Below the pieces are notes generated by a model. That model was not told where the DNA came from. It saw nothing but the letters and a program-made list of their open reading frames with translations, and did no database searches. From positions 63,116 through 127,115 of the forward strand of contig JAIEOU010000004.1 in the NCBI GenBank assembly GCA_019750255.1: a DNA stretch of 64,000 bases, in the 5' to 3' direction. Made by a program: the position numbers and the translations under genes. Shown here in pieces: positions 6,353 through 64,000 of the stretch (its first letter is position 1; every line of letters begins with the position of its first letter). The DNA is from Patescibacteria group bacterium (GTDB taxonomy: Bacteria; Patescibacteriota; Minisyncoccia; Phycocordibacterales; UBA918).

Positions 6353-6391
6353 AAACCACAGCGTGGTCCCTTTGGGACCACGCTGTGGTTT
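6353..6391. terminator. strong 18-bp stem hairpin (putative bidirectional terminator)
   Basis: aaaccacagcgtggtccc ttt gggaccacgctgtggttt; weak U-tracts on both strands. Confidence 0.4.
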
Positions 6392-6465
6392 AAAAATAAA
6401 TAAGAATCGCCCGCGAGGAGCGATTCCCAGCGGGCTTTCTTTGTGGATGAAGTAGCGGCAACATT

Positions 6466-6663
6466 TCAGTCCACCACGGATTCTGAACTATTGAAGTAGA
6501 ACTTGTAGTCTTCCTGCTCTCGAGCCAGTCCAGCCCAAATGAACCAGCACGGGGCTTGCCAGAGCCTGACCATGCCGCGCCTTGTCGACATAACCACGCC
6601 CTCGAAAATCGTACCATTCATCTTCCAATACACTCTTGCTCCCACCTTGGGCAGGTGATTCAT
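6466..6663 (-). CDS. small hypothetical protein
   Basis: ORF only; start chosen at MMNHL to avoid overlap with pepA. Confidence 0.25.
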   Translation of the reverse strand: MNHLPKVGARVYWKMNGTIFEGVVMSTRRGMVRLWQAPCWFIWAGLAREQEDYKFYFNSSESVVD

Positions 6664-6789: not shown

Positions 6790-8220
6790 ATGGTAACTAT
6801 CACTGCAAAGAAGCACGGTCTACAGGAAGCGCCCACAGACTACTGCAGGCTTATCCTCACCGAAGAGCCTGCGTCGACCCACCGCTTCGTAGAAACAACC
6901 ACAGGCTCACTCGAGTATCGCCTGGGGGTAGGGAAGTACAGCGATGTAACCATGCGTACCTTCCGCACCCTCATTCGTAATGTGGTACAGATTGCCAAGA
7001 ATCACCAAATAGAAAAACTGGCCGTCGAACTACCACAAGCACAATTCCCACAGCTCGCGAGCGAACCGGCACATTGGTATACTTCTACCATTGCAGAAAA
7101 CGCCCTGCTCGCCGCGTACGAATACAACCGCTATAAAACCAAGAAGGACAAAAAGAAAAAGTTTACCGAGCTCCTTCTCTGTGGCGTGGATACGAAGGAA
7201 GAAATTTCCGGTGCAGCCCGGGGTAAAACGGTTGCGGAATTTACTAACGCCATCCGTGATCTTGCGAACACTCCCGGCAACGACCTTTCCCCAAGCCAGT
7301 TTGGTGAGGCGGCCAAGAAGCTACTTAAAATCAAAGGAGTGACCGTTACCGTCCGCGGGGAGAAAGAACTAAAGAAACTTAAGATGGGACTACATCTCGC
7401 TGTAGGAGCCGGAACCAAAAGCGAGAGTAAACTGATCGTTGCTGAATACTGGGGAGCAGGCAAACCTAGTGGAAAGAAAACCGCTGGGGACAAACAACCG
7501 ATTATTCTGATCGGTAAAGGCATAACCTTTGATAGCGGGGGACTTAATGTAAAGCCAGGCGGCAGCATGCATGACATGCATATGGACATGGCAGGCGGCG
7601 CGTCAGTGCTCGGGGCGCTCGGAGCAGCCGCAACTTTGGGACTGAAGAAAAATATCATCGCGATTGTTCCTGCGGCAGAAAATGCCATCTCGGATGATTC
7701 AATGCGGGCCGGTGATATCGTCACTGCCATGAACGGACTCACGGTTGAAGTAATGCACACCGATGCTGAGGGGCGCATGGTCCTCGCAGATGCCCTGACT
7801 TTTAGCCAGCGCTATTCACCTCGAGCCATCATTGACGTAGCCACACTCACAGGGGCGGCGCTCGTAGCCCTTGGTACCCAAGCCAGTGCCCTCTTAACCA
7901 AAGACAAGAACCTTTCTGACCGCCTCATGGACCTCAGTGAACGGTCTGGTGATCTTATCTGGCCACTCCCGCTATGGGACGAGTATAAACAGTACCTCAA
8001 GAGCTCCCGCGCTGACCTCACGAACGTTGATCCTACCTTTGCGCGTTCTCACGGATGCATCGAAGGCGGTATCTTCTTGTCGTACTTTGCTCCAAAGGGC
8101 GTACCTTTTGCGCACCTCGATATCGCACCACGTATGGAGTCAGTGAGCGCTGACAAACTCGCCAAGGGCGCTACCGGTGAACCAGTGCGCCTCCTTGTCT
8201 CCTTCCTCGAGACGTACTAG
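6790..8220 (+). CDS. pepA: leucyl aminopeptidase (M17)
   Basis: NTDAEGR signature (HTDAEGRMVLADAL), GITFDSGG. Confidence 0.85.
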   Translation: MVTITAKKHGLQEAPTDYCRLILTEEPASTHRFVETTTGSLEYRLGVGKYSDVTMRTFRTLIRNVVQIAKNHQIEKLAVELPQAQFPQLASEPAHWYTSTIAENALLAAYEYNRYKTKKDKKKKFTELLLCGVDTKEEISGAARGKTVAEFTNAIRDLANTPGNDLSPSQFGEAAKKLLKIKGVTVTVRGEKELKKLKMGLHLAVGAGTKSESKLIVAEYWGAGKPSGKKTAGDKQPIILIGKGITFDSGGLNVKPGGSMHDMHMDMAGGASVLGALGAAATLGLKKNIIAIVPAAENAISDDSMRAGDIVTAMNGLTVEVMHTDAEGRMVLADALTFSQRYSPRAIIDVATLTGAALVALGTQASALLTKDKNLSDRLMDLSERSGDLIWPLPLWDEYKQYLKSSRADLTNVDPTFARSHGCIEGGIFLSYFAPKGVPFAHLDIAPRMESVSADKLAKGATGEPVRLLVSFLETY

Positions 8221-8249: not shown

Positions 8250-8999
8250 ATGCAGCGCGAGCACACGCGACCTCAGCTGGATTTTTCCATCAAAACCGAA
8301 GTCTTTGAAGGGCCTTTAGAGTTGCTCATAGAACTGGTAGAGCGGCGAAAGCTCCTCATTAACGACATAAGCCTCGCCACCGTCACCGATGAGTACTTAA
8401 AGAAGGTAAGTGAAATGCAAGAACGCTCACTTCCGCACACGGCTCTCTTCATCACCTTGGCAGCAACGCTCTTACTTATCAAATCGAAGTCGCTGTTGCC
8501 CGTCCTCGAGCTAAGCGGGGAAGAGGAGGCCATTATTGAAGACCTGGAGGAACGCTTGAAGCGCTACCAAATTTTCCGTGATGTCGCCAAGGATCTGGTA
8601 ACCATATTTGGTAAAACCACCCTCTACGAACCTGAATTTACTCCGCCACGTGAACCGATTTTCCACCCCACGCGCGAGTGCGCACTCTCTGAACTTACCA
8701 CCGCCATAGGTGAAGTACTTACAAACCTTCCAAAGCCCGAAATCAAACATACCGCACACGTTCGCCCCACTATTACGCTGGAAGAAATGATTTCGCGGGT
8801 CCAGTCCCACATCGAGCAAAAAATCCGCACGAGCTTTGCGGCTATTACACAGGGCGAGGTGGAACGAAAGACTTTAATTGTAGGGTTTTTAGCGATACTC
8901 GAACTCTTCAAACAAGGTGGAGTCATCGTTACTCAAAGCGGGCGTTTTGCCGACATTGAGATTGAGCGTGAACACAGCGATACGCCAAAGTACTATTAG
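8250..8999 (+). CDS. scpA: segregation and condensation protein A
   Basis: ScpA N-terminal region LELLIELVERRKLLINDISLATVTDEYL; followed by scpB. Confidence 0.8.
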   Translation: MQREHTRPQLDFSIKTEVFEGPLELLIELVERRKLLINDISLATVTDEYLKKVSEMQERSLPHTALFITLAATLLLIKSKSLLPVLELSGEEEAIIEDLEERLKRYQIFRDVAKDLVTIFGKTTLYEPEFTPPREPIFHPTRECALSELTTAIGEVLTNLPKPEIKHTAHVRPTITLEEMISRVQSHIEQKIRTSFAAITQGEVERKTLIVGFLAILELFKQGGVIVTQSGRFADIEIEREHSDTPKYY

Positions 9000-9058: not shown

Positions 9059-9595
9059 ATGTCACCCGATATTCAAATCGAGGGTTTGCTTTTTTATAAG
9101 TCGACCACCCTAAAAAAACAAGCTATTATGGCCACCCTGGGTTTGAGCGGGGAGGTATTTGATGAGGCGTTGACGCGTTTACGTGAACGTCTTTTACTTG
9201 GCGCAACCCGTCTGGTTGAGACCGATACTGAGATTGGACTCATGACCGCACCTGAGCTCGCACCACTAATAGAAACGGTGCGCAGGGAAGAGCTGCGGGG
9301 CGATATCGGCAAGGCCGGTATCGAGACCCTCGCCATTATTCTTTATCGTGAGCCGGTCACGCGTGCAGAAATAGATCGTATCCGCGGCGTCAATTCTTCA
9401 TTTTCCCTACGAGCCCTGCTCATGCGCGGCCTCATCGAGCGTAAACCGGGTAGCGGCGGAGCTCACGTATTTTTCACCACCCCGGCCCTTTTGGCACACC
9501 TTGGGGTCAGCCATAAATACGAACTGCCTAATTTTTCTACCATCATGACCGCCCTTGAACAGTTTGAAGCCACCCCTGAAGTAGCAACATCATAG
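9059..9595 (+). CDS. scpB: segregation and condensation protein B
   Basis: ScpB winged-helix motifs IEGLLFY... and ETLAIILYREPVTRAEIDRIRGV. Confidence 0.8.
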   Translation: MSPDIQIEGLLFYKSTTLKKQAIMATLGLSGEVFDEALTRLRERLLLGATRLVETDTEIGLMTAPELAPLIETVRREELRGDIGKAGIETLAIILYREPVTRAEIDRIRGVNSSFSLRALLMRGLIERKPGSGGAHVFFTTPALLAHLGVSHKYELPNFSTIMTALEQFEATPEVATS

Positions 9596-9599: not shown

Positions 9600-10631
9600 A
9601 TGAACGAAGATCAGCAAGACACAACACCAGATGCAGCACCAGCGACAGGGAGCGAGGTTCGCGCCGCCCGCTTTCCTGTCACTCTTCAACTTGGTCTCCT
9701 CGGTGTATTTTTGGTGACCCTCTTTACTATTGCTGGAGGGACAGCAACCCAGTTTATGCGGTCATTAAAAGACGAGAGTCTACCGAAGGCATCCGGACAG
9801 GCCTCACCAGCCGTTGCCTTGACCGATATTGAAAGCGGACCGTTTGAAGTACCAAACGACATCGCTCTTACCGCGGACAGTGTCTACGTCTGGGACGTAG
9901 TAGGGAAGCGGGTTTTATATGAAAAAAACGGAAGCGAGGTTCTCCCGCTCGCGTCTATTACAAAACTCATGACTGCGCTCATCGCCTATGAGCTCGTGGA
10001 CGGCAATACACGCGTAACTATCCCAGGCACCGCCGCAGCGCAAGAGAGTGCGTCTGGTCTTGCCAGTGGCGAAGTCTTTAATGTCAGGCGACTAGCGGAC
10101 CTGGCACTGATTGCTTCGGCCAACGATGCAGCCTACTCACTTGCAAGTGCTGTGGGTGCACTCCTTGGCGGAGATGAAGCGACCGCACAGTTTGTCGCCG
10201 CGATGAATATACGCGCAAAGGAGCTTGGACTGTCATCGCTCGACTTTAAAAACACGACCGGGCTTGACCTCACAATGACCGAAGCTGGCGCCTACGGCAC
10301 GGCACGTGACGTCACGTTTCTTATGGAGTACATTCTGACCGAGCACCCCGCTCTCCTTGAGAGCACCACCGAATCAGCCATGCGCGTATACAACGACTCT
10401 GGCGACTTTCATGATGTGGAAAACACTAACGTACTCATAGGACAGGTTCCTAATTTAATTGGCTCAAAGACCGGCTACACCGATCTTGCTGGCGGGAACC
10501 TGACCGTAGCCTTCGACACCGGTTTTAACCGACCAGTAATTATCACCGTTTTGTCTTCATCACAGCAAGGAAGATTTGCTGACGTAGCAGCGATTGTTGA
10601 TGCGGTACAAACAGGCAAAGGTGCTGAATAA
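9600..10631 (+). CDS. D-alanyl-D-alanine carboxypeptidase (S11 family, PBP5-like)
   Basis: SxxK (SITKLMTA), SxN (SAND), KTG (SKTGYT) motifs; N-terminal TM anchor. Confidence 0.8.
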   Translation: MNEDQQDTTPDAAPATGSEVRAARFPVTLQLGLLGVFLVTLFTIAGGTATQFMRSLKDESLPKASGQASPAVALTDIESGPFEVPNDIALTADSVYVWDVVGKRVLYEKNGSEVLPLASITKLMTALIAYELVDGNTRVTIPGTAAAQESASGLASGEVFNVRRLADLALIASANDAAYSLASAVGALLGGDEATAQFVAAMNIRAKELGLSSLDFKNTTGLDLTMTEAGAYGTARDVTFLMEYILTEHPALLESTTESAMRVYNDSGDFHDVENTNVLIGQVPNLIGSKTGYTDLAGGNLTVAFDTGFNRPVIITVLSSSQQGRFADVAAIVDAVQTGKGAE

Positions 10632-13965: not shown

Positions 13966-15445
13966 TTCTACAGATACCTCACTTCGCCCCGTCGTGACGC
14001 GCTTTGCGCCATCACCCACCGGCTTCATGCATATTGGCGGTGTACGCACCGCACTTTTTGCCTACCTGTATGCCAAGCGCCACAGGGGAACCTTTATTCT
14101 ACGTATCGAAGACACTGACAAGGAACGTGAAGTCCCTGGGTCAATCGCCCACATTCAAGAGTCCCTGGCCTGGCTCGGCATCACTCCTGATTTTGGCCCA
14201 GACACTCCCGGGCCGTGGGGAAGTAACATCCAGTCAGAGCGTCTCTCAATCTATAAGCGCTACGCCGAGGAACTGATTGCCAAGGGTTTGGCGTACCCTG
14301 ACCCTTATACTGCAGCCGAGGTTGAGGCATTTCGGGCACAAGCCACAGCAGAGAAGCGGCCGTTTTTAATCCGAAACCACCGGCCCGCAACTTTTGAAGT
14401 CTGGGATGGGACCAAGCCCCTACGGCTTAAGGTACCCGAGGTAAAGCGCTACACCTGGCACGATGTGGTACGCGGCGAGCTTACGGCTGGGGAAGAGGCA
14501 CTTGATGACGTTGTGCTCATAAAGGCCGACGGCTATCCGACGTACAATTTCGCGCACATTGTGGACGACCATGAAATGGGCGTGACACACATTATGCGAG
14601 CGGACGAATTCATTTCGAGCCTGCCTAAGTTTCTTTCTATTTACGACGCCCTCGGGCTTCCGTATCCAGAGTTCGTAACGATGCCCCCCATCCTTCGTGA
14701 TGACCGCAGTAAAAAGCTCGGCAAGCGTGATGGAGCTAAAGACATCCTCGATTACCGTACTGAGGGGTATTTGCCTGAAGCCATGATGAACTTTCTGGCA
14801 CTGACCGGCTGGAACCCAGGCACCGAGCAAGAACTATTTACCCACGATGAACTTGTGGCAGCGTTTGATGCCACCAAGATCCAGCGCGCTGGGGCAGTGG
14901 TAAATGAGGACAAGCTTCTGTGGATGAACAAGTACCATCTTGGCAAGAAGGATGAGGCATTCAAACATGAGTACGTAAAGAACGCGCTTCCTGAAGCGCT
15001 CCGTAGCCTACCTACCTGCACCGAAGAAATCCTCACAGCACTCACTCCAGTAGTGCTAGAACGTATCCATACCAAGGTAGAGATTTCCGACGCCGCAAGG
15101 GAAGGGGAGTACGATTTTGCCTTTATTACTCCAGAGTACGACACTGCGTTACTACAGTGGAAGAAAGACCCGAGCGTGTTAGAAGCACTTCCGCGCCTCA
15201 AGCGCGTTTTCGAGATACTCAGTGCGGCGAATGTAGATTTCAGTAATGCCGAAGCGCTCAAAGAGTTGCTTATGCCCTACGCAGAAGAAGTAGGGAAGGG
15301 GGAGGTACTCTGGCCCCTACGGGTCGCTCTTTCAGGTCGTGCTCAGTCGCCTGATCCCTTTACAATTATGACTATCATTGGTGGGGGAGAAACCTTGAAA
15401 CGCCTCAGTAATGCCTGTGGTAAAATACAGGGTGATGCATCGTAG
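13943..15445 (+). CDS. gltX: glutamyl-tRNA synthetase
   Basis: PSPTGFMHIGG (HIGH region), KLGKRDG (KMSKS-like); 500 aa; overlaps murG 3-prime end. Confidence 0.85.
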   Translation: MVLNMAPNSTDTSLRPVVTRFAPSPTGFMHIGGVRTALFAYLYAKRHRGTFILRIEDTDKEREVPGSIAHIQESLAWLGITPDFGPDTPGPWGSNIQSERLSIYKRYAEELIAKGLAYPDPYTAAEVEAFRAQATAEKRPFLIRNHRPATFEVWDGTKPLRLKVPEVKRYTWHDVVRGELTAGEEALDDVVLIKADGYPTYNFAHIVDDHEMGVTHIMRADEFISSLPKFLSIYDALGLPYPEFVTMPPILRDDRSKKLGKRDGAKDILDYRTEGYLPEAMMNFLALTGWNPGTEQELFTHDELVAAFDATKIQRAGAVVNEDKLLWMNKYHLGKKDEAFKHEYVKNALPEALRSLPTCTEEILTALTPVVLERIHTKVEISDAAREGEYDFAFITPEYDTALLQWKKDPSVLEALPRLKRVFEILSAANVDFSNAEALKELLMPYAEEVGKGEVLWPLRVALSGRAQSPDPFTIMTIIGGGETLKRLSNACGKIQGDAS

Positions 15446-45674: not shown

Positions 45675-45689
45675 GTTATAGTTCTCTAC

Positions 45690-46721
45690 CTAGCGATCAT
45701 CCTCATCCTCATCCTCGTCTTCGTCCTCGTCTTCGTCCTCGTCTTCGTCCTCATCTTCGTCCTCATCAAGCTTCTCTCCAGCTTCCTCTACCATTTCTCG
45801 AACCTCCTTTGCTAGCTCGTAGGCTTCCTCAAAATCACTCTGGTTAAGGGCGCGGCGGGCCTCCATCAATTTCTTTACCGCCTCGTCAGTTGCGTCCTCT
45901 GCTTCCTCAATCATGTCATCCGTGTAATCACCATCATCTTCGCCTTCACGGATATCCATACGGAATCGCTGGATTTCTCGCTCGGCAGCAGCAATCTCCT
46001 TTCGAGCATCTTCCCGGCCAACGTCTTTACTTGATGATGCTGTATCGTCGTCTTCACTTTCATCTTCGTCTTCATTAGCACCACTCCCCTTGTCACCACG
46101 ATGTTTCTTTACCTTGTCACAGAACTTTTGGTTGCCCGGGAGTGTGTAGTCACAATTCGTCCACTTGTCGCCCAGACGATCCCACACCCGTGTTCGCACC
46201 TCAAGTGACTTTAGAAGTCCTGGAGGTACTGAACCCTCTACCCGCTCCTTGCGTAATTCACGCATCAGCTCGCGAGTTGGCGCATCGGGGCGACCCGTCA
46301 CTTCAAGCTCATAGCGAGCCTGGAAGCGCTTGATGGCTTCACGGGTCATTGGACCAAAGTAGCCAGTCACCCGACCCTCTGGATAGAGCTCCTTGTCACT
46401 CGCGAGTAACTCCTGAACCTTTATAATATCATCATTTTCTGTCCCTTCTTCAATATCCTTCACCAGTTCCTGTACGTCACCCTGCAAGGTAGCGAGGAGT
46501 GCCCGCAACTCGGTAATTCGCTTCAAGAGTGCCTCCAGCGCCTTCATGTTCGACGTCACTGGTGCGCTAGTGGTAGCAGTAGTGGTTGCAGTTGTTGTAA
46601 CAGAGGTCGTGGCGGTGGTGGTCGATGTTTGTGCACTGGCGACCATAGCTCCAGCACCCATCGTAAGTACGAGCACTGCTGCACACGCAGCAATACTGTA
46701 CGAGATTGTATGAGTTCTCAT
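45690..46721 (-). CDS. secreted peptidoglycan-binding-domain protein with T/A-rich linker and long (DE)n acidic C-terminal tail
   Basis: signal peptide, low-complexity TTATTSVTTTATTTATTS, PG_binding_1-like motif GRVTGYFGPMTREAIKRFQ...LEVTGRPD, C-terminal DEDEDED x ~15. Confidence 0.6.
   Translation of the reverse strand: MRTHTISYSIAACAAVLVLTMGAGAMVASAQTSTTTATTSVTTTATTTATTSAPVTSNMKALEALLKRITELRALLATLQGDVQELVKDIEEGTENDDIIKVQELLASDKELYPEGRVTGYFGPMTREAIKRFQARYELEVTGRPDAPTRELMRELRKERVEGSVPPGLLKSLEVRTRVWDRLGDKWTNCDYTLPGNQKFCDKVKKHRGDKGSGANEDEDESEDDDTASSSKDVGREDARKEIAAAEREIQRFRMDIREGEDDGDYTDDMIEEAEDATDEAVKKLMEARRALNQSDFEEAYELAKEVREMVEEAGEKLDEDEDEDEDEDEDEDEDEDEDEDDR
45697..45775. repeat. tandem trinucleotide repeat (GAN/CTC)n encoding the (DE)n tail
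   Basis: catcctcatcctcgtcttcgtcctcgtcttcgtcc... seen directly. Confidence 0.5.
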
Positions 46722-52452: not shown

Positions 52453-53991
52453 ATGAAAGACATCAGCAATACTACGAACTGGACGGCCTGCAACAACTGC
52501 TTCGGACTGGGAACGGTCCTCCGCGAACATTCTCTAAAAAAGCGTCAGCACCAAGAGTGGCAACTGGCCACCTTTTTAAGCAACCTGGCCGGCACGAACG
52601 CTCCTAAACCGCTTAGAGAGCACCGCGACACCTGTGACGCCTGTGCCGGCTCGGGACTAATCGCTACCGCTAGCGTGAGGAAGATTATTCCCGACCACTT
52701 CCCCACCGTAGCCATTATTGGCGCTGGTATCGGAGGAGTAGCTCTAGCGGTAGCCTGTCTCCACCGCCGTATTCCTTTTACACTGTATGAGCGTGACGAA
52801 AGTTTTAGCGCTCGCTCCCAGGGCTACGGCCTCACCCTACAACAAGCCAACAAGGCTATACGTGGTTTAGGTATACAGTATCTAGCTGGAGGCATTAACA
52901 CAACGAGACACGTCGTACACAACGCGGCCGGAACAGTGCTCGGTGAATGGGGTCTCCGCAAGTGGAATAAGCCGCAAGCTGAAAACAGCACGAAACGCCG
53001 CAACGTGCACGTTGCGCGGCAGACACTACGCTCTGAACTGCTCCTCCAGCTGGGTGAGCATCCACCGGTCAGCTGGGGTTACACCCTGACCGGCATCAGG
53101 AAGAATGGAAATAGCGGCACCGATCTCCACTTCACAGTTGGCGACAAGACACACATTGCAACAGCGGATCTAGTTGTCGGAGCTGATGGTATTCGTAGTT
53201 CCGTACGGAATTTTCTGATTGGTGAAGAGGCATCGCCGCTCCACTATCTTGGCTGCGTTGTCATATTAGGCATCTGTCCACTGCAATCTCTCAAACACGT
53301 CATGACTCCACTGCTCGATTCAGCAACTGTCTTCCAAACAGTCAATGGCATAGAGCGATTATATGTCATGCCGTATGACGCGGACTCCATCATGTGGCAG
53401 TTTAGTTTCCCGCTATCTGAAATCGCCGCGAAAGCATTGAGCGCACGTGGTCCTGAAGCCCTAAAAGCAGAAGCGTTGACCCGACTGCGATGGCATGACC
53501 CAATACCGCACATTATAGAGAACACCTTAGCGGCAGACATCACCGGGTATCCCGTTTACGACCGGCCAGTGCTTGACCCGCACCTACTACACGGAGCAGA
53601 AAATGCCACTCTAATGGGCGACGCTGCCCATCCAATGAGTCCATTTAAAGGTCAGGGGGCTAATCAAGCCTTACTTGATTCCCTGTTACTCGCTCGCATG
53701 ATTTCTCTCGAGTGTGGGCCCGATTCGAAGTGGCGGCAAACGGGCCTGCGCGACGCTGTACTTGCCAAGTTCGAAAAAGAAATGATCGAGCGGTCGAAGG
53801 GTAAGGTTGAGGAATCAAGGGAAGCCGCCTACTTTCTACACTCTGAGGCAGTCCTCCACGTCAGTGACGAACCAAGAGGTTATCGGACACAGACAGCAGA
53901 GACTGCCAAGCAAAGCTACCATGAGAAACAAGTCAGACTCAGTCGGACTCAGAACGCCGGAGAAGTTATTCTAAAATCGCACTCGTTTTAG
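52453..53991 (+). CDS. FAD-dependent monooxygenase (flavoprotein hydroxylase family) with N-terminal Cys-rich extension
   Basis: GxGxx[51 protein letters not shown]-terminal CNNCFGLG...CDACAGSG; start uncertain (ORF opens at 52324). Confidence 0.75.
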
Positions 53992-55773: not shown

Positions 55774-55872
55774 TGAACCTACCGCTCAAAACCCGTCTTG
55801 CCCGACACTAACTCACAACCCACATAGAGAAAACCATGTTTTCATAAGCTACTAACCATAACTATTGATAAC

Positions 55873-56025
55873 GGGCGAGCGCTTGGCGAGCAGCGCGGCG
55901 CACCACCACTCGCGGCGAGCGTACGGAGAGGAACAATGCCTCCACGCGCTCGGCGCGTGCGAAGCACGCGATTACACGCTTTGCGAGGTGAAATGGGTTC
56001 GCGCAAAGGTAAGTATTTCATCACA
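55873..56025 (+). repeat. GC-rich repeat family, copy A (core only, ~150 bp)
   Basis: last ~100 nt identical to copy C (gagcgtacggagaggaacaatgcctccacgcgctcggcgcgtgcgaagcacgcg...ggtaagtatttcatcaca). Confidence 0.7.
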
Positions 56026-56034
56026 AAAAGCAAA

Positions 56035-56071
56035 AAAAGCACCTCCACATGGAATGTGCTTTTTGTATTTT
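56035..56071 (+). terminator. putative hairpin + U-tract immediately after repeat copy A
   Basis: aaagcac ...13 nt... gtgcttt then ttgtatttt. Confidence 0.35.
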
Positions 56072-56156
56072 GTGACCCACTAGCGTGGCTTTCAGAACTT
56101 TACAAAAATAGAAGTTATATCCAAAAAGCGGTAAGTGAATTGTCTATGGTAATGAA

Positions 56157-56741
56157 TTAGCTCTTTGCAGAAGTCAAAAAGTCCCGTAACTCGTCAATTG
56201 TTTTTGTATCACCTCGTAGTACACCATCATACACATCAACTGATATAAACTCTTTTCCAACCCCATATAGGTTCTTCCCAATAAGTTCTTCTTTCAGCAA
56301 AAGTATAGCGGTGCGGTGTTCATCACTTATGGTTAAAAGCTCTTCTGCATAGCGGTTTGTATCTCCTGTATACCACTCTGGTTTTTGTAGCCAAATGTCT
56401 AGTTTCCAAACATTGTCACCGAAATTGATGTCGGGAGACACCCAGTAACCAAAAGGTCTTTTTTCTGAATGTGTATGTGGGTAATTTACTCTATCTGCAG
56501 ATTTGAACTTTGAGGTATAGTCCAATCTTATGAGTTCACCAGAAAGCTTGGCAAAAAAATCTTTAGATACGTCATCGCTAACAACATCAATGTCCAAATC
56601 AGGATAGTTTAGAAGTTTATAGGAATAGCTTCCACCAACTGATACCTTTCCGTATTGTTCAAGAATTGGTAATAGCGTTTTTTCCAGTAGTAAGGATGCT
56701 TCGTCGTGAAGTGCGTTTTGTTTTTGTAAAAGTGGGTGCAT
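56157..56741 (-). CDS. nucleotidyltransferase (Pol beta superfamily) domain protein
   Basis: GGSYSYKLLNYPDLDIDVV = GS...D.D NTase motif; 194 aa. Confidence 0.6.
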   Translation of the reverse strand: MHPLLQKQNALHDEASLLLEKTLLPILEQYGKVSVGGSYSYKLLNYPDLDIDVVSDDVSKDFFAKLSGELIRLDYTSKFKSADRVNYPHTHSEKRPFGYWVSPDINFGDNVWKLDIWLQKPEWYTGDTNRYAEELLTISDEHRTAILLLKEELIGKNLYGVGKEFISVDVYDGVLRGDTKTIDELRDFLTSAKS

Positions 56742-56816: not shown

Positions 56817-57070
56817 TGTGATGAAATACTTACCTTTGCGCGAACCCATTTCACCTCGCAAAGCGAGTGATTGCGTGCCTCGCACGCGCCGAGCGCGTGG
56901 TGGTTTTGTACCTCTCCGTACGCTCGACGCGGGTGGTGGCGCGCCCCGCCGCTCGCTAACCGCTCGCCCCCAACCAATGAAATATCCTTACTTTTTGATT
57001 TTTCGGTGGAGGGGTCTGGGGAGGAGCCGACAAAAAATTGAAAGGATATTTCATTGGTTGGGGGTCGCCG
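56817..57070 (-). repeat. GC-rich repeat family, copy B (full, ~255 bp, inverted relative to A and C)
   Basis: reverse complement matches copy C almost base for base; contains perfect 21-bp inverted repeat arms 56967-56987 / 57044-57064. Confidence 0.75.
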
Positions 57071-57274
57071 CTTCGTCCTCCAAAAAGCTCCGTTTTAGTC
57101 TCCATCTACTTGAGAGCCTACCACTTCGCTTTTTTACGTCCTCGCGTCGAGCGTGGCACGCTTCCCGTATACAGCGCGCGTGGTATATCGAGAGTCCGCT
57201 CACACTACGCAACCACCTCGCATAGGCACGCTCGCATCCGCTCGCGCCGCCTGCTCGTCGCTAACGCTAATGTG

Positions 57275-58579
57275 CTATTTAAACTTCGAGAATAAATTAA
57301 CTATTGATTTTAAAGTTTCATTATCAGGCACTATTTCTTTAAGTTCTTTGGCTTTAGTAATAATGTCGTCAATGTCGAGACCTTCACTTTTTTCTTGTAC
57401 GTCATTTTGACTTGATGAATTACGCTGAGGAGAATAGCCTTCAAAGGGCTCAGAGTATAAGCTGGCCATCGACTCTCGTATAAATTGACCTGTTGGAACG
57501 TCCGTTCGCTTGATTTCTTCAATCAAAAAGTTTGTATGCTCTCTCATAACCACAGCACGAGCTGCTTTAAAAGCATATTTCTCGTTTAGCCTTCTTTCTA
57601 TCCCATACTGTCTAATTGAAAAGCCTATAAGTAGCAGGAGTGGTGATGTGAGAGTGAGTCTGTAAATTAACACTCGCAACTCTGGAACCGAATCCAGACC
57701 ATTAAAAACGTACAAAAGTACAAAAGATAAACCTATGACACTGAGTACGAAAACTGCTAACCAGACAACCGCTGTAACTCGTAGCATCCTTTCACGTTGC
57801 TGAAACGCATTAGCGAAGCCGGTGTCAGTGATAAGATTGGTGATTTTTTCAACCTCATCTCGTCTACTCTTTGCAATTTCCAGATTATCCTGAATTTCGA
57901 TACGGAGTGTATCAGAAATTGTCTTATTAGCTTTAATTTCTTCTAAGTATTTCAGGCTCTCATCTCGAAAAGACTGAATTTCAATAAAAAGCGCACCGGA
58001 TTTCTTCTGTAAGTTTGTTGAGTTGGCAAGTATTGCTTCTAGGCCGGTTTTCTCATCAGAAATTTTTCCATAAACAACCAAAAAGCCCTCATAGGCTTTT
58101 TGCATCTGATCAATCTTGCTTTGAACTTGAGCTAGTAGGTCTTCTATACTCAGCAGTCTTTGCTGTGCTGCTTTCTTGAGTGTATCGATATCGTTATGAA
58201 GGCTTGTGGCGGCTGTAAGCAGTGTGCTAATCTCTCCGCTCTTTCCTTTAACTTCACCTTGTAGTGTTGCAAATTCATTAAGACCATTTTCAATACTCGC
58301 TAGCACTGATTCAGCTCTTTCGAGATCACCTTTAATGGCTGTTATATGGGTTGTTGAGTTGTTTTTAGCATTCTCAATTGAAGCTAAATAACCGCGCGCA
58401 TCTGCACTTAATTTTTCAACGTTTCCTACACTATTTTTTAGCCCTGCTTCAGCCGACTCGTACTGGGTTTGTAAGGCAGTAACCTTCTCAATCAGTTCAC
58501 TCGCCTTACTAAATTTAGCGCGTAGCTGTTTCAGTTCTTCCGTACTTATAGGTTCTGAAGTCTGATTTTCGTCGTCCAT
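57275..58579 (-). CDS. coiled-coil protein with C-terminal two-TM hairpin
   Basis: ~250 aa heptad-rich region then hydrophobic segments VVWLAVFVLSVIGLSFVLLYV and LLLLIGFSI. Confidence 0.5.
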   Translation of the reverse strand: MDDENQTSEPISTEELKQLRAKFSKASELIEKVTALQTQYESAEAGLKNSVGNVEKLSADARGYLASIENAKNNSTTHITAIKGDLERAESVLASIENGLNEFATLQGEVKGKSGEISTLLTAATSLHNDIDTLKKAAQQRLLSIEDLLAQVQSKIDQMQKAYEGFLVVYGKISDEKTGLEAILANSTNLQKKSGALFIEIQSFRDESLKYLEEIKANKTISDTLRIEIQDNLEIAKSRRDEVEKITNLITDTGFANAFQQRERMLRVTAVVWLAVFVLSVIGLSFVLLYVFNGLDSVPELRVLIYRLTLTSPLLLLIGFSIRQYGIERRLNEKYAFKAARAVVMREHTNFLIEEIKRTDVPTGQFIRESMASLYSEPFEGYSPQRNSSSQNDVQEKSEGLDIDDIITKAKELKEIVPDNETLKSIVNLFSKFK

Positions 58580-58662
58580 GGTTTATAAAATACACCAAAT
58601 ATTGACGAAGCACAAAGTTCACGTTCTGGTTATTTAGTGTTTTAATTTGTTATACTTTAGCA

Positions 58663-59343
58663 ATGATTCAGTGGATGAAAGCCACCTGGTACTATCAAGT
58701 TCTTGCTGTCGTTTTGGGTGTAGTAATTTTCTATATTGGATTTAGCGTTGGTGAGCGTACTACTGTACAAGTAACTACGGAAGTACTAACGCAAGCAACT
58801 GCTACTACCTCCGAAGCAACTACACCCACAGAGACCGGGCTAATAACTTTCAAGGGTCTTGAAATGACTGAAAAAGCGCTCCCGCCACTACCAACCCAAG
58901 AAGAATGGGACGAGGTTTTACGCGGGAGTGGTGTTTTTGAGAATAGATATAAAGAAGACGCGGTCAAATTCGGTGATATTGCAAAGCGATACCACAGTAT
59001 TAGCGACGATAACAATCCTTACATAAACGTTGAAGTTGCCGATGTTACAGGAGACGGGCAACCTGAGCAGATTGTCTCACTAAGTGGTGGCGGTTCATAC
59101 GGTGTTGACACATATGAGATTGTGCAAGGAGAAAGCATAATTGCAACCATTGATGCCTACTCAGTTGGTCGCGGTGCCTCGCTCAAACCCAATGAGTCCA
59201 AGGATGGATTTGAGATGGTGTGGTTCCGTGACGATATGTACCCAGGTGGTTATTGCTGCCCAAGTGCCCAAATGGTCACTAAATTTAAATACCACAAGGG
59301 TGAGTATATGGCAGTTAGTGAGACAGTAGAGCTATTGAACTAA
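58663..59343 (+). CDS. hypothetical membrane-anchored/secreted protein
   Basis: N-terminal TM YYQVLAVVLGVVIFYIGF, T/A-rich linker, globular C-terminus. Confidence 0.45.
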   Translation: MIQWMKATWYYQVLAVVLGVVIFYIGFSVGERTTVQVTTEVLTQATATTSEATTPTETGLITFKGLEMTEKALPPLPTQEEWDEVLRGSGVFENRYKEDAVKFGDIAKRYHSISDDNNPYINVEVADVTGDGQPEQIVSLSGGGSYGVDTYEIVQGESIIATIDAYSVGRGASLKPNESKDGFEMVWFRDDMYPGGYCCPSAQMVTKFKYHKGEYMAVSETVELLN

Positions 59344-59444
59344 CTTCAAAATTTTTTAGGTAGTGAACTATCCCTATTCAGAGCACGTGCGGTAGTGTAT
59401 GTGTAAATGAAGTGGGCTAAGGATGAGTATAGGGTGCAAATATT

Positions 59445-59807
59445 TTAAGCAGCACCACGCGAATCTGAAATAATTTTCTCCGCATCAGTAAGAACTTCTT
59501 TAATCGCATCAAAGTTCTCACATTCTTCAATTTCATCCGCAAGTACGTTTAGCCAGTGGCGCTTATCATCTGAACGCGAAACAGGTGGTGGGGTGAACCA
59601 TCCTTGAACAACCTTCGCATCATCACCATATACAGCCCAGACTAGGTTATTTGAATTGAACATACTCCAGAAACTTCCTCCAGGGGGTAACTTCCATATT
59701 CTCACTTCAGAACAATATCCATCTTTATACTTTGCAAAAACTCGGATGCAGAAATCCGAAAATTCAATCACTGCATGCTTTTCATTTATCGTTCTTATAT
59801 TTGCCAT
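59445..59807 (-). CDS. hypothetical protein (120 aa)
   Basis: ORF only. Confidence 0.4.
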   Translation of the reverse strand: MANIRTINEKHAVIEFSDFCIRVFAKYKDGYCSEVRIWKLPPGGSFWSMFNSNNLVWAVYGDDAKVVQGWFTPPPVSRSDDKRHWLNVLADEIEECENFDAIKEVLTDAEKIISDSRGAA

Positions 59808-59968
59808 TTTGTTTTAAAAATAAGTAATATCATCATTCGTTCTGACAGACTTAATCACAATACTACTATCGCCTAGGTCTATATTCAACATCATTGGTTT
59901 TACACTAACATACGGTCACAAGCCCATCAGTACCTCGCATGGGAATGCTCACACCACTCGCTCAGTAG

Positions 59969-60946
59969 TTATTTTTTTATATAGTACTTGTCGAACTCTT
60001 TAAATATCTCAGTGGAGTAGTACTTTTTAGATGTACCAGTCTGCTTAATAAAATCCAGAAATCTTTCGTCGGAATATTTTTTATCACTCTCCAGTCGCTT
60101 CTTATGTGCGTAAAATCCATTATTAGTTACAAAATCCATATATCGCTCTTGCATTTTTTTAACTAGTTCTTGATAGTCCATCGGATACTTATTTTTGAAC
60201 TGCTCTTCTACGTCAACTCTTATCTTCAATGTGGCGCTTGGGTCGTATTGCACCCTCAATGCATCCGGAGTGGAGCTTTTAGAAAACTTCGTCTCAATTT
60301 TTAAAGAAATATTATGATCCATTTTCTCATCAGACGGATACTGGCTTTCTTTTTGTAGAACCTGAGCTAGTAAATTTTTAACCTGTGTAGATTGTTTATT
60401 GACTGAAAAACTTTCCATTTCAAAGGAGTGAAAAAAAGAAATTGGCATCAAGTAAAAATTATATTGGCTTAAGTCGTTGTCAAACCACTCATTAAACATC
60501 CTCACGTAACTTTTCAAGTTTGCAGTCCCTACTTCTAAGACCTTCTTTTGAAAAAATGGGTCTTTATTTAAAAAATGAATTGCATTATCTCGTATCTCAA
60601 TTAAGAGATTAAGGTTTTCCTTTAAAATATCTGGCAATCCCAATTTTTCCATTGCTCCTCTAATTTCTATTGTCATCGGATTGAGAGAGCGGTTGAGTTT
60701 AGGATAAAAACGTTTGGACGGTGTGCCGTTTTTATTTACACTTCGCTCTTGTACATAAATTGATCGCAAATCATTAGCACTATCCTTCAAAATTTTTGAT
60801 TTTAGAAGTAATTCCCATGCGTTAATCATCAATATTGAAAATGTCTCCTCGCGATACTTGAAATCTGGTTTGTTATAAACCTCTATCGCTGAAATGGCTG
60901 AGGCAATTGATTTTTCTAGCAGTGCTTTGTTTCTCTCTTTTGCCAT
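59969..60946 (-). CDS. hypothetical protein, last gene of the C-M-R operon
   Basis: 20 bp downstream of the DUF262-HNH gene on the same strand; no secure family assignment. Confidence 0.5.
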   Translation of the reverse strand: MAKERNKALLEKSIASAISAIEVYNKPDFKYREETFSILMINAWELLLKSKILKDSANDLRSIYVQERSVNKNGTPSKRFYPKLNRSLNPMTIEIRGAMEKLGLPDILKENLNLLIEIRDNAIHFLNKDPFFQKKVLEVGTANLKSYVRMFNEWFDNDLSQYNFYLMPISFFHSFEMESFSVNKQSTQVKNLLAQVLQKESQYPSDEKMDHNISLKIETKFSKSSTPDALRVQYDPSATLKIRVDVEEQFKNKYPMDYQELVKKMQERYMDFVTNNGFYAHKKRLESDKKYSDERFLDFIKQTGTSKKYYSTEIFKEFDKYYIKK

Positions 60947-60965
60947 ATCTCTAAATTACAGCTAT

Positions 60966-62069
60966 CTACTTACCAGACTTTCGGCGGTTGCAGTCCTTGC
61001 ACAACATTTGGCAATTTTCTGCGGTAGTTTTCCCGCCCTCGTGCCATGGGGTAATGTGGTCGGCTTCCATTTCTCCAATTTCAAACTGACTACCGCATTT
61101 CGGGCAGATACCTTTCTGGCGCTCGTAGGCTTCACGTTTCATTTTGTCGTTGAAAGCGCGGATTGAAAGGTGACGCTCTTGGCGGGTAAGAACGTACGGA
61201 TAAATACCAGACTTTTTAGTAACGTCCTCGTCTTGCATCAGAGTCGAGATTTCTTCCTCTAGTTTTACAGCGTTGAGTTTCTTGCCATTGTACTCGTTGT
61301 GTAGCTCGCCCCAATTTACGCTCGCCATTTCTCGGCGGTAATTTGGAAACGTCTGGCGCACCCACGCTATAACGCTTTGAAAATACTCCCACAACTCATT
61401 GGCATTTTTGTCGTGCTGGTGTTTTGCCATGTAGCCGGCAACTTCATCGTTATTGATCCAAGAAAGTGCTGTTTCGAGGTATTCTTGGCGGATTGGTGAG
61501 CCAGTGAGTAGTGCACCACCATCGTTAGCAAGCAAGTATGCCGCACAACCAGACTTACTAAATTTGAGTTTTGCATCTGAGAGCCACTCGCCAGTGTATA
61601 CAGCGTTTTTCAGTTCTTGCGGGGTAAGTTTTTCTCCTGCAATGTTGATTATTTCAAACCAGTCCAATTTTTCTTTATCCGTTCCTTCGCAGTGGTAAAT
61701 CATTAGTTCGTAGTCTAAAATCTGCTCCTGTTCCTCTTTGGTGAGGTTATGGAACATGGCGGTACGCCCATTAAAATCTACTGAGAAGTCATTATTTACA
61801 AACTGACCGATACTGATAGTTCGCTGCTGTCCGTCGAGTACTTCAAAACTTCCTTCACTTGTCTTGACCCAATACATCACGTTGAGGGGAAAGCCTTTCT
61901 TGACAGTATCAATTACCGCATTACGTTGCTTTTCTTTGTAGACAAACTCTCGTTGGTATTTTGGGCGCACATCGAGCTTGCCACCATAGGCAACTACACC
62001 TTCCTCGTTGTTGTCTGCATAGCCAGCGACAACGTCTCGTATCTTAATTCTGTATAGTTCGATTTTCAT
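60966..62069 (-). CDS. DUF262 (ParB/GmrS-like) + HNH endonuclease fusion, GmrSD-family-like nuclease
   Basis: N-terminal DUF262 signature RPKYQREFVW...LDGQQRT; C-terminal HNH CPKCG...DHITPWHEGG...NCQMLCKDCN; ATGA overlap with upstream MTase stop. Confidence 0.8.
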   Translation of the reverse strand: MKIELYRIKIRDVVAGYADNNEEGVVAYGGKLDVRPKYQREFVYKEKQRNAVIDTVKKGFPLNVMYWVKTSEGSFEVLDGQQRTISIGQFVNNDFSVDFNGRTAMFHNLTKEEQEQILDYELMIYHCEGTDKEKLDWFEIINIAGEKLTPQELKNAVYTGEWLSDAKLKFSKSGCAAYLLANDGGALLTGSPIRQEYLETALSWINNDEVAGYMAKHQHDKNANELWEYFQSVIAWVRQTFPNYRREMASVNWGELHNEYNGKKLNAVKLEEEISTLMQDEDVTKKSGIYPYVLTRQERHLSIRAFNDKMKREAYERQKGICPKCGSQFEIGEMEADHITPWHEGGKTTAENCQMLCKDCNRRKSGK

Positions 62070-63190
62070 ACTATTTTTTTTACTTTAAGATTTTTGATAA
62101 CGATACGGTCGTACAAGCGTTGGTACGTTCCATCTTTATTTCTAATGTAAAACCGTGGGCCACCAGGAGAGTATGTTCCTTTTTGAGCAAGTTTAGTCAT
62201 GGGTTCACCAAGTGTCTTGCTAGAACCAATAATTTCAAACTGCATTGGATTGTACTTGTCTATAAAGGTGATAGGTACGCCGATGTGACCTTCATAATCC
62301 ATCGGTATGTCAGAAACTTTCGAGACTTCAATTGCATTGTAATTAAAGTATGTTGGGTATTCAGAAGGTGTATATTTTTTATAAAGTACTTGCTCTTGAA
62401 ATCTTTTAGTAGTGTCCAAATTTGTAAACCAGTAAATCCTTCCCATACTAAAATACTTAATACCGTTCTCAATCTTTTTTCTTGATTCCGTTGGTATATC
62501 GTAGTCCATTGGTACCTGAAACCATTTAGTTCCACCATTATCATAACCAAGCCACAATTTGTTATCTTTGATGTAGTTGAAGGTTTCTTTATATGTTATA
62601 GCGTTTTGATCACCAAGAATTAAAAACTTTTTGTTGTATTCCATTAATTGAGCCACGTATTCACGAAATAGTGAGAAGGGTGGATTTGTAACAACAATAT
62701 CTGCCTGCTTAAGCAGCTCAATACTTTCTTCGCTCCTGAAGTCACCCTCACTCTCCATCGGAGACCATTCGTTATTTTTGTTTGCTTTAAGTTGTTCAGC
62801 AATATCGCGTAGGTCATAAGCGCAATCACCATCCAAATCGTGAACTTCGTTAATTATAAACTTGTTTGCTGTAGCTTTTGGGCGACCTTTCGGAGTCTCA
62901 AGTACTTGAACACCACCAAACAAGTCAATTTGTGTATTCGCAATGGGTGATGGCTTATAACTCGTTGCGATGAGACGCTTAAGTCCTAATGCATTAAAAT
63001 TACCTGCAAAGTACTTAAAAAAGTTGCTCTCAAACGGGTCGTCACAATTACAGTAGACGACCTTTCCTCGAAACTGCTCTTTGTAATGTTTGAGTTCCTT
63101 TTCAATATCAATGAGTTGAGTATAAAACTCATCTTTCTTTGCTTGTCCGGCCTTATTAAGACCCATATTTAAAGTTGGCTTTGTGCTCAT
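62066..63190 (-). CDS. N6-adenine DNA methyltransferase (EcoRI-methylase-like family)
   Basis: DIVVTNPPFS (motif IV NPPF); N-terminal KDEFYTQ...VVYCNCDDP resembling EcoRI-MTase family N-terminus (recollection, not searched). Confidence 0.75.
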   Translation of the reverse strand: MSTKPTLNMGLNKAGQAKKDEFYTQLIDIEKELKHYKEQFRGKVVYCNCDDPFESNFFKYFAGNFNALGLKRLIATSYKPSPIANTQIDLFGGVQVLETPKGRPKATANKFIINEVHDLDGDCAYDLRDIAEQLKANKNNEWSPMESEGDFRSEESIELLKQADIVVTNPPFSLFREYVAQLMEYNKKFLILGDQNAITYKETFNYIKDNKLWLGYDNGGTKWFQVPMDYDIPTESRKKIENGIKYFSMGRIYWFTNLDTTKRFQEQVLYKKYTPSEYPTYFNYNAIEVSKVSDIPMDYEGHIGVPITFIDKYNPMQFEIIGSSKTLGEPMTKLAQKGTYSPGGPRFYIRNKDGTYQRLYDRIVIKNLKVKKIV

Positions 63191-63191
63191 G

Positions 63192-63389
63192 TTACTTTTT
63201 CAAAAGGTCGTCTACCTTAACTTCGAGCGCGGTGGCAATTTTGGAAAGAGAGTTAATGGTGGGGTTTTGATTCGTGCCGTCCTCAATCTTCACAACGGTG
63301 CTAAGTGACACATCAGCAAGCCTGGCAACCCTTTCGAGTGAGTAACCTTTTTCGGCACGAATCTTTTTTATGTTACTCGCTATGCTCAT
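63192..63389 (-). CDS. XRE-family HTH transcriptional regulator (controller C-protein-like, 65 aa)
   Basis: IKKIRAEKGYSLERVARLADVSLSTVVKIEDG helix-turn-helix; stop 1 nt before MTase ATG. Confidence 0.8.
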   Translation of the reverse strand: MSIASNIKKIRAEKGYSLERVARLADVSLSTVVKIEDGTNQNPTINSLSKIATALEVKVDDLLKK

Positions 63390-63414
63390 AATCAGTATTG
63401 TGTAATTTGATACT

Positions 63415-63424
63415 AGTATTATAA
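63415..63424. promoter_or_regulatory. palindrome ATACTAGTAT overlapping a TATAAT-like -10, candidate C-box/operator for the XRE-MTase operon
   Basis: seen in sequence 26-35 bp upstream of the XRE start codon (minus strand). Confidence 0.35.
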
Positions 63425-63491
63425 TACAAAGTATGTACTCCTTATATCTTAATCATACGGGACTTTGGAGCATTTGCAATTTTACGGACTC

Positions 63492-63749
63492 ATTGCGGCG
63501 ACCCCCAACCAATGAAATATCCTTTCAATTTTTTGTCGGCTCCTCCCCAGACCCCTCCACCGAAAAATCAAAAAGTAAGGATATTTCATTGGTTGGGGGC
63601 GAGCGGTTAGCGAGCGGCGGGGCGCGCCACCACCCGCGTCGAGCGTACGGAGAGGAACAATGCCTCCACGCGCTCGGCGCGTGCGAAGCACGCGATTACA
63701 CGCTTTGCGAGGTGAAATGGGTTCGCGCAAAGGTAAGTATTTCATCACA
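63492..63749 (+). repeat. GC-rich repeat family, copy C (full, ~255 bp)
   Basis: perfect 21-bp inverted repeat arms 63502-63522 / 63579-63599 with 56-nt spacer, then core identical to copy A. Confidence 0.75.
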
Positions 63750-63911
63750 CATCGCTACTTCCTCGGAAGATAGCACCGAAGCAGGGCGCGGCGTAGCCGC
63801 GCCCACCGAGCAGAAACCGCCCCGCGCCATGCTGGCGCTCACGAAAACGGAGGGTGGGCGCTGCGCTAAATGAGTCCTCAATAGTTTTGTCGCTTTTGAA
63901 TCTAAAATTGT

Positions 63912-64000
63912 ATGTCCAAACCAAAATATTTTCTCTACGCCCGCAAAAGTACCGAAGACGATGACAAACAGGTTATGTCTATCGAGGCACAGCTCTTTGA
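63912..64000 (+). CDS. serine recombinase (resolvase/invertase or large serine recombinase), N-terminal fragment, truncated by window end
   Basis: MSKPKYFLYARKSTEDDDKQVMSIEAQL matches the catalytic N-terminus pattern YARVST..Q...S[IL]EAQ with nucleophile Ser. Confidence 0.55.
   Translation, partial: MSKPKYFLYARKSTEDDDKQVMSIEAQLF

Follow-up and report, generated by a model that had tools for sequence, protein, structure and literature searches.

Long hairpin-rich inverted repeats beside a serine recombinase gene as probable boundaries of mobile defence cassettes in Patescibacteria

The repeat unit found in three copies (A, B and C) within a 64,000-nt window, as we call the whole stretch of DNA analyzed here, is probably a module that acts at the DNA level and bounds mobile gene cassettes, with the adjacent large serine recombinase (LSR) serving these cassettes. 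Copies B and C would represent the 255-bp terminal inverted repeats of cassette Y, a 6.9-kb recombinase-less cargo cassette with restriction-modification and PDC-S19 genes (56817-63749). Copy A would be the surviving end of an older neighboring cassette, and the NTase-like ORF would be flanked by two cassette ends that face outward. In each copy, the ~30 bp at the outer tip (GTTCGCGCAAAGGTAAGTA-TTTCAT-CACA) are the putative LSR half-site. At copy C it would meet a mirror half-site (CACA-CATCGC-TACTTCC) that starts a second type of long repeat, and a recombinase module with its own repeats of this second type would adjoin C at the common CACA. Throughout, the sequence left of this junction is named P and the sequence right of it P-prime. 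In the proposed mechanism, LSR dimers would bind the half-sites as pairs, with strand exchange at the AC in the middle of CACA leading to insertion, excision or inversion of whole cassettes beside the recombinase module. Recombination of a circular cassette, closed by a P-CACA-P(inverted) joint, with a P-prime-CACA-Z site would give the junctions seen at copies C (P-CACA-P-prime) and B (P-CACA-Z). The anatomy, its conservation and the tRNA junctions are observations, whereas binding by the recombinase, the place of crossover and the mobility of cassettes are deduced here from sequence.

Patescibacteria have tiny genomes, and gene exchange among them is poorly understood. If the repeats are the ends of LSR cassettes, they would provide a concrete and testable rule for the packaging and movement of defence genes in these bacteria, made up of the terminal motif, crossover at CACA and a tRNA target. 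They would also supply a new set of serine-integrase sites with possible use in genome engineering. The 130-340 bp length of the hairpin-rich repeats is not explained by the known serine-integrase sites of 40-50 bp, and, if the proposed role is true, such repeats go beyond the current models of these sites.

Copies B and C are 97% complementary over 255 nt each and bracket 6.4 kb between them. Both contain a long hairpin whose perfectly complementary 21-bp arms, CCCCCAACCAATGAAATATCC (63502-63522) and GGATATTTCATTGGTTGGGGG (63579-63599) in copy C, are separated by a 56-nt spacer. Within the window these arms are present only in B and C, at a chance expectation of 0 matches. The inner stem of the long hairpin encloses the loop TCCTCCCCAGACCCCTCC (63541-63558), in which the core CCCCAGAC at 63545-63552 is conserved. 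This 98-nt palindrome is absent from copy A. All three copies lie inside an island of low G+C content (~41% versus ~51% in the remaining window), in which the repeat core reaches 63%. The preliminary description of this DNA, made from the letters alone, had reported the perfect arms and equal spacers of B and C, three stem-loops in the downstream core and a high-GC repeat in an AT-rich island, and all of these are confirmed; its claim that the core is completely identical in A and C applies to the last 110 nt of the unit (63640-63749). It had also read a hairpin and U-tract directly after copy A as the end of a small RNA. The hairpin is real, but it is bidirectional with the longer and better T-run on the minus strand, and it can equally well be the terminator of the convergent NTase-like gene.

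Copy C differs from A at 11 positions, confined to 63592-63639, and from B at 8 positions, confined to 63656-63700. Since the two sets of differences fall in separate blocks, copy C is a mosaic with a B-like 5' part and an A-like 3' part, and the repeat copies have therefore recombined with one another. The near-identity within repeat pairs could result from gene conversion after inverted duplication.

Table 1. Coordinates of repeats, genes and hairpin stems in the window and in related metagenome loci (L numbers)
Feature	Position	Strand	Description
Copy A	55864-56025	+	162 nt, truncated P-type unit without the long hairpin
Hairpin after copy A	56022-56075	.	Bidirectional, terminator-like; folding of both strands
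NTase-like ORF	56157-56741	-	194 aa, between the outer ends of A and B
Copy B	56817-57071	-	255 nt; putative distal terminal inverted repeat of cassette Y, outer end towards the NTase-like ORF
U element	57072-57265	-	G+C-rich, non-coding; adjoins copy B on its inner side, 3' end of the cargo operon
Cassette Y cargo	57275-63389	.	HTH controller, type II methyltransferase, GmrSD_N/HNH restriction enzyme, PDC-S19 (DUF3644), three ORFs
Copy C	63495-63749	+	255 nt; P-type unit, putative recombinase-proximal terminal inverted repeat of cassette Y
Long hairpin/palindrome	63502-63599	.	Perfect 21-bp arms, extending to 30 nt at 90%
Terminal arm GTTCGCGCAAAGGTAAGTATTTCATCACA	63721-63749	+	Putative recombinase half-site (P)
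CACA	63746-63749	.	Point where similarity of all copies stops; putative crossover
P-prime region	63750-63911	+	Between copy C and the recombinase ATG; starts the second repeat type
LSR gene start	63912-64000	+	First 29 codons, then window end
L074 P-prime repeats	39-169 and 1607-1737		131 bp, 100%; around recombinase gene
L100 P-prime repeats	4823-4977 and 6385-6523		76%; around recombinase gene
L101 P-prime repeats	7898-8000 and 8342-8444		93%; around recombinase gene
L102 P-prime repeats	7669-7827 and 9360-9518		96%; around recombinase gene
L089 cargo repeats	1558-1749 and 5652-5843		192 bp, 99.5%; OLD-family gene and 523-aa protein
L102 IR1 cargo repeats	383-721 and 7337-7675		339 bp, 99%; HTH, methyltransferase, ResIII (restriction-modification)
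L102 IR2 cargo repeats	10234-10404 and 15145-15315		171 bp, 100%; AbiEii ... HTH
CCCCAGAC-loop stem, window			TCGG/CCGA, inside the 21-bp arms
CCCCAGAC-loop stem, L089			GCGCGCA/TGCGCGC
CCCCAGAC-loop stem, L112			TGCGGC/GCCGCA
CCCCAGAC-loop stem, L102			GGCGGGCAAAAA/TTTTTGCCCGCC
CCCCAGAC-loop stem, L079			CCCCGC/GCGGGG

The 29 codons of the LSR gene that fall within the window translate to MSKPKYFLYARKSTEDDDKQVMSIEAQLF, a fragment 100% identical to the N-terminus of the L074 recombinase. The full-length L074 enzyme has Resolvase, Recombinase and Zn_ribbon_recom domains, and it is through this relative of the window fragment that the recombinase adjacent to the repeat is assigned the domain set of an integrase-type LSR of ~520 aa. 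Its best named families are CcrB and XisF, with scores far below the cut-offs (89 bits for the Ccr models at a cut-off of 900 bits), and among solved relatives SPbeta SprA ranks best. Relatives from phages and plasmids share less than 30% identity. At least 6320 relatives belong to the family at E <= 1e-30; among the best 120 listed, identities range from 68% to 100%, and those with a named source come almost entirely from Patescibacteria lineages. Homologous loci were found by means of the recombinase N-terminus padded with X to the minimum query length. This query returned 65 near-identical N-terminal fragments, of which only two were labeled with a taxon, both Patescibacteria. All its matches were short proteins of 29-71 aa, and the full-length query gave homologues of ~520 aa; we put the shortness down to candidate selection by the search, not to biology. 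A tblastn search with the 29-aa fragment gave no match. The window itself is chromosomal, with aminoacyl-tRNA synthetases and DnaB present, and the 83-97% identity of this DnaB to proteins of Kaiserbacteria, Paceibacteria and other Patescibacteria places the host in the latter group.

Nine informative Patescibacteria metagenome loci served as the comparison set, and they share a recurring layout in which long near-perfect inverted repeats (170-340 bp) surround defence cargo. For instance, the cargo repeats of L089 and L102 are laid out in the same way as B and C of the window, with P as the outer tip. L111 combines the same HTH-plus-RM cargo with a hairpin of 22-nt arms and two direct P arms. 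Recombinase-less cargo cassettes bounded by sites of the module type were found in the window (cassette Y), L089, L102 (two cassettes), L111 and L112. Three ORFs in the cargo of cassette Y have no confident family match, and none of its genes encodes a transposase. The U element is 71% identical over 133 nt to positions 4455-4582 of L112, where it holds the equal relative position. On the other side of copy B, the 194-aa ORF that had previously been called an NTase matches no family. Copy A probably marks the right end of an older cassette in which DUF2130 and NUDIX genes lie.

Homology upstream of the recombinase also spans the loci, from the last ~45 nt of the window repeat through the start codon. 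Beyond the recombinase gene, P-prime is repeated in inverted orientation in L074, L100, L101 and L102; in L078 no inverted P-prime copy was detected. The far P-prime copy meets the 3' end of an intact tRNA gene in L074 (Arg-TCT) and L100 (Glu-TTC), the near copy meets a tRNA gene in L101 (Ser) and L076 (Arg), and a tRNA gene follows the 3' end of the recombinase in L078 (Glu) and L112 (Ser-CGA). These junctions lie at the discriminator base, with the last tRNA bases supplied by the element, and hybrid sites composed of an element arm and a host target are present in L074/L076, L100 and L101. Within the window ARAGORN found no tRNA or tmRNA, and together with Rfam it rules out that the repeat is a remnant of either.

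The recombinase segment occurs in opposite orientations at one and the same tRNA locus, in L074/L075 on the one hand and L076 on the other, between 131-bp perfect repeats. Such a pair raises the alternative that the segment between B and C can be inverted by crossover at these two repeats, as a phase-variation switch of the Hin/Gin/Cin type in which the recombinase flips the 6.4-kb cargo and, in relatives, its own gene. The position of the recombinase gene directly outside a segment flanked by inverted repeats is compatible with a switch, and the mosaic copy C shows that the copies do recombine. However, two orientations were seen for the recombinase module only, and that of L076 may be an assembly ambiguity since the k-mer of 119 is shorter than the 131-bp repeat. 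Flipping a cassette between identical repeats alters no junction and makes no obvious promoter-gene link. The enzymes differ as well: the invertases of such switches have ~190 aa and a C-terminal HTH, whereas the LSR described above is an integrase-type protein and no small invertase. We regard a dedicated inversion switch as very unlikely.

The cassette boundary reading draws on the structure of the junction at CACA. The similarity of A, B and C is lost directly after CATCACA, as it is in the repeat pairs of L089 and L102 and in the direct pair of L111, and the flanks beyond CACA differ between copies (AAATAAGG versus CATCGCTA). When aligned on the junction, the outer repeat ends carry GTTCGNGCAAAGGTTAGTA-N6-CACA. 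After copy C the sequence continues as CACA-N6-TACTTCC, placing the mirror half-site TACTTCC at 63756-63762, and the complete window junction (GGTAAGTA-TTTCAT-CACA-CATCGC-TACTTCC, 63732-63762) is an imperfect dyad centered on CA/CA. The same pattern, GGTAAGTA-N6-CACA-N6-TACTTCC, recurs in L074, L089, L100, L102 and L111, and the alignment of six loci reads GTTCGNGCAAAGGTTAGTA-N6-CACA on the left and N6-WACTYSS on the right. A site of ~40-50 bp with an imperfect dyad around a central dinucleotide is expected of an LSR attachment site, and junction C agrees with this layout. We infer crossover at CACA and, by symmetry, AC as the central dinucleotide. No recognizable mirror half-site follows CACA at copies A and B, and half-site-like matches elsewhere in the window occur at chance frequency. 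Homologues of the P-prime region were found in L074, L089, L100, L101, L102 and L111; in the window this region includes a G+C hairpin, GGGCGCGGC-GTA-GCCGCGCCC, at 63784-63804. Altogether, the sharp CATCACA ends, the att-like dyad at C, the tRNA junctions and the recurrence beside the same LSR family support the possibility, already named in the preliminary description, that the unit is a recombination site or terminal inverted repeat.

The distance from the GTTCG motif to the junction is 29 nt in six repeat arms and 23 nt in three tRNA arms. In serine integrases, the motif for the zinc-ribbon domain lies 5 bp further inward in attB than in attP half-sites (PMC3783163). The inward shift of GTTCG resembles this arrangement but is only suggestive, because it amounts to 6 bp rather than 5 and the match is short (5-6 nt); the motif also lies further out than in the A118 model.

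Both the sequence of the terminal arm and its distance to the repeat end (29-30 nt) are kept in the window, L074, L089, L100, L102 and L111. The arm was also found in L079, L112 and, weakly, L102 IR2, always at outer repeat ends. A census with R1, a sequence-only model of the terminal arm, recovered every known copy, including the outer arm of copy B (47.3 bits) and copy A (46.1 bits). New copies were located in L079 (2535-2585, adjoining tsaD) and L112 (4234-4276 and 3499-3537), and both arms of L102 IR2 gave weak matches (14.5 and 11.8 bits). Every R1 match is located at an outer end and points outward. Across six loci the sequence of the terminal 58 nt is conserved, and RNAalifold found no conserved base pair in this stretch; conservation of this kind without conserved pairing is the pattern of a protein-binding site.

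This result also bears on an RNA explanation, according to which the unit is a shared 5' leader or small RNA that is transcribed outward and regulates the NTase-like gene and the recombinase in cis or in trans. As the preliminary description had stated, the ends of both full copies do lie close upstream of outward-reading genes, ~75 nt from the NTase-like ORF and 162 nt from the recombinase ATG. Nevertheless, neither a leader nor a small structured RNA is well supported. In the whole window no Rfam 15 family reached the gathering score, and at E <= 10 the hits within 55.5-64 kb were no better than chance, so that no family was matched even at this permissive threshold; on the homologous loci Rfam returned only tRNAs and one unrelated LOOT RNA. 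The whole 255-nt unit folds well beyond shuffled sequences (z = -5.4, or about -5), and this exceptional value is due to the long palindrome alone. Compared with dinucleotide shuffles, the 150-nt core is not exceptionally stable, at z = -0.56 for the plus and -1.74 for the minus strand. No promoter-like site was found in or just before the unit on its sense strand, and two of the eight positions at which B and C differ disrupt predicted pairs and have no compensating change.

The preliminary description had proposed to look for compensatory changes. No pairs are kept in the terminal 58 nt; the inner hairpins keep their pairing with different stems. The CCCCAGAC loop is closed by a different perfect stem at each locus (Table 1). 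The P-prime hairpin consists of G+C only, usually with a GAA or GTA triloop, and its pairing survives changes on both sides. In both cases pairing is maintained while the stems change between loci, and stems that change around fixed loops would also suit an RNA. Some pairs of a minus-strand helix at 63610-63640 are G-T, and its pairing can accommodate two of the A/C differences. The equivalent hairpin of L078 has a deviant loop.

However, the conserved loop occurs in either orientation, and no fixed transcribed strand can be assigned to it: the CCCCAGAC loop is C-rich on the arm-sense strand in four units (window, L089, L079 and L102 IR2) and G-rich there, and hence antisense, in two (L102 IR1 and L112). 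The stems are all Watson-Crick palindromes and thus fit DNA equally well as RNA. Taken together with the variable orientation of the loop, this means that a role as folded DNA or as duplex fits better than a transcript of fixed polarity. An RNA function for the unit appears unlikely to us. The inner G+C-rich hairpins are probably DNA structures, protein-binding accessories or insulators rather than trans-acting RNA; given their changing stems, a single-strand structure of either DNA or RNA is possible.

The repeats might also be selfish or neutral, either palindromic MITE-like sequences or the residue of an inverted segmental duplication, with no role for the recombinase. A 47-nt hairpin module that is 96% identical between two otherwise unalignable repeat pairs of L102 would fit such an origin, as would the lack of the 98-nt palindrome in copy A and of target-site duplications around B and C. 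A selfish or neutral nature is nonetheless very unlikely, for the motif of the terminal arm and its spacing from the boundary are kept across loci whose repeat interiors cannot be aligned, and the association of the repeats with one LSR family and its mirror half-site recurs in at least six loci.

Several further candidates were considered. A DDE-type transposon or MITE would account for inverted repeats, but target-site duplications and a DDE transposase would then be expected, whereas the flanks after CACA differ and the cargo lacks a transposase. A coding repeat is unlikely, as the ORFs across the unit lack conservation and appear to be spurious. The absence of matching enzymes nearby also makes a retron, bridge RNA or omega RNA unlikely. 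BLAST of the 255-nt unit against plasmids and phages returned nothing, and the exact 20-mer of the core was not found in genome, metagenome or viral contigs. A search for the hairpin-arm pattern gave 73 loci, none with the 21-bp arms or the core, which we take as unrelated hairpins. In viral contigs, neither the recombinase protein nor the terminal-arm pattern nor the loop 18-mer matched anything but unrelated phage coding sequence of high G+C content.

A more far-reaching form of the cassette reading is offered tentatively, and we consider it doubtful. It would make the repeats part of an undescribed serine-recombinase cassette system of Patescibacteria, a counterpart of attC-like systems in which folded-DNA CCCCAGAC hairpins are obligatory and cassettes dock at tRNA genes next to a recombinase module. 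Its hairpins would be cruciform or single-strand recognition elements, or replication elements, and defence cassettes would be capped at both ends by the long, self-identical and hairpin-rich inverted repeats.

Among known systems, the boundary modules and their cassettes would work most like the composite SCC islands, the ssrA islands of Dehalococcoides and cargo elements that target tRNA genes such as tycheposons. SCCmec and related SCC islands (CcrAB/CcrC) also rely on large serine recombinases, and CcrB, CcrA and CcrC are the nearest named families here. They likewise lie at the 3' end of a conserved housekeeping gene and form arrays in which a module that carries the recombinase is combined with cargo cassettes that lack one, and recombinase sites bound each of them. 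In contrast, the target here is a tRNA gene instead of rlmH, a single recombinase is present that falls far short of the Ccr cut-off, and the boundaries are near-perfect hairpin-rich inverted repeats of 130-340 bp rather than short direct repeats with short terminal inverted repeats. The Dehalococcoides islands (PMC3146451) resemble the present loci in that a serine integrase (DsiB, CcrB-like) lies beside its target gene and tandem cargo islands, some without an integrase of their own, are found at a tRNA-like gene (tmRNA); they include cis-mobilizable members. However, direct repeats of 20 bp from the ssrA 3' end mark their limits, and insertion takes place within the T-loop, whereas the junction here lies at the tRNA discriminator base and the boundaries are long inverted repeats. 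Direct repeats of the target 3' end do not delimit the cassettes studied here; A and C do stand in direct orientation, but their sequence does not come from a tRNA end.

The attachment sites of phage serine integrases (A118/LI, Bxb1 and phiC31; PMC3783163) share the imperfect dyad about a central dinucleotide, a half-site of ~25-30 bp and perhaps an outer motif that lies nearer the center in the host arm, which here is the tRNA arm, than in the element arm. Those sites are 40-50 bp long and need no flanking structure, whereas here the half-sites are the tips of repeats of up to 340 bp and both cassette ends carry the same arm. Integron attC sites are comparable as structured, imperfectly palindromic cassette boundaries with variable sequence and a preserved fold, and in their arrays of promoter-less or self-contained cassettes beside one recombinase. 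They differ in using a tyrosine recombinase on single-stranded attC, and in having one site of 60-140 bp per cassette instead of an inverted pair.

The tycheposons of Prochlorococcus (10.1101/2020.12.28.424599) are described, in the part of that report considered here, as cargo elements at tRNA genes that form variable islands in streamlined genomes, a minority of which use large serine recombinases. According to the same part, most use tyrosine recombinases and carry replication genes, unlike the present cassettes, and long hairpin-rich inverted repeats do not figure in it. The literature searched contained no description of this layout in Patescibacteria, which is not proof of absence, and the cassette layout does not seem to have been described earlier. 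What sets it apart from SCC, ssrA islands and tycheposons is the combination of long, self-identical, hairpin-rich inverted repeats with a recombinase gene that is bracketed by repeats of its own.

A G+C-rich, non-coding element, designated 'U' and without a match in Rfam, lies immediately interior to the distal copy of the 255-bp inverted repeats, where the cargo operon has its 3' end. Over 133 aligned nt, this element is 71% identical to a segment of L112, one of the related metagenome contigs recovered through the N-terminus of the serine recombinase, and the cargo of the two cassettes differs. L112 also carries a degenerate terminal arm beside a tRNA-Ala gene, from which its island extends to a tRNA-Ser.

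In the 98-nt palindrome of the repeat, the arm of the hairpin, AAAAGTAAGGATATTTCAT, is similar to AAAGGTAAGTATTTCAT, the terminal arm (the putative recombinase half-site at the outer end of the repeat), save for a 2-nt insertion; two inverted cassette tips may thus have given rise to the palindrome as a miniature derivative. No such likeness was seen in the other loci. Elsewhere in the window, the low-G+C island has its left boundary at the overlapping ends of a 555-aa plus-strand ORF (52% G+C region) and a DUF2130 gene (39% G+C region), with neither a repeat copy nor a tRNA at that point. A tandem repeat at the 3' end of a minus-strand ORF has an acidic low-complexity tract as its predicted product.

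Coordinates of features in the window and in related contigs
Feature	Sequence	Positions	Strand	Details
Hairpin arm	window	63579-63599
Terminal arm	window	63732-63749
'U' element	window	57072-57265	minus
Segment aligned to 'U'	L112	4455-4582
Degenerate terminal arm	L112	3416-3548		2 nt from tRNA-Ala gene 5' end
Island left edge	window	53966-53991		26-nt overlap
Tandem 12-nt repeat	window	45685-45789		TCATCC/TCGTCT units; ORF 45690-46721
Recombinase gene	L074	221-1795
Recombinase segment	L074	39-1737
Recombinase segment	L076	140-1792
LOOT RNA (RF03000)	L074	3876-4007	minus	77.6 bits
Second recombinase gene	L074	6767-8563

Codon 45 of the recombinase gene in contig L074 is an in-frame TAG, where L078 has Glu at the matching codon. 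The same stop occurs in L075, L076 and L077, the four contigs carrying it come from four different samples, and the other 462 codons are intact; it represents either a shared pseudogene or a read-through or recoded stop. At a common tRNA-Arg locus, the recombinase segments of L074 and L076, each bracketed by 131-bp perfect inverted repeats, stand in opposite orientations; the segment may truly have inverted, or the assembly (k = 119) may have left its orientation ambiguous. L074 further contains a LOOT RNA with an 817-aa gene downstream, and a second recombinase gene whose end likewise abuts a tRNA.

Chromosomes (L079-L088, L090-L099 and L101) retain short remnants, 53-68 codons in length, from the N-terminal part of the recombinase gene. 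Many contigs, moreover, stop about 200 nt into the gene, suggesting that its 5' end is a repeat, common to several genomes or present within one genome.
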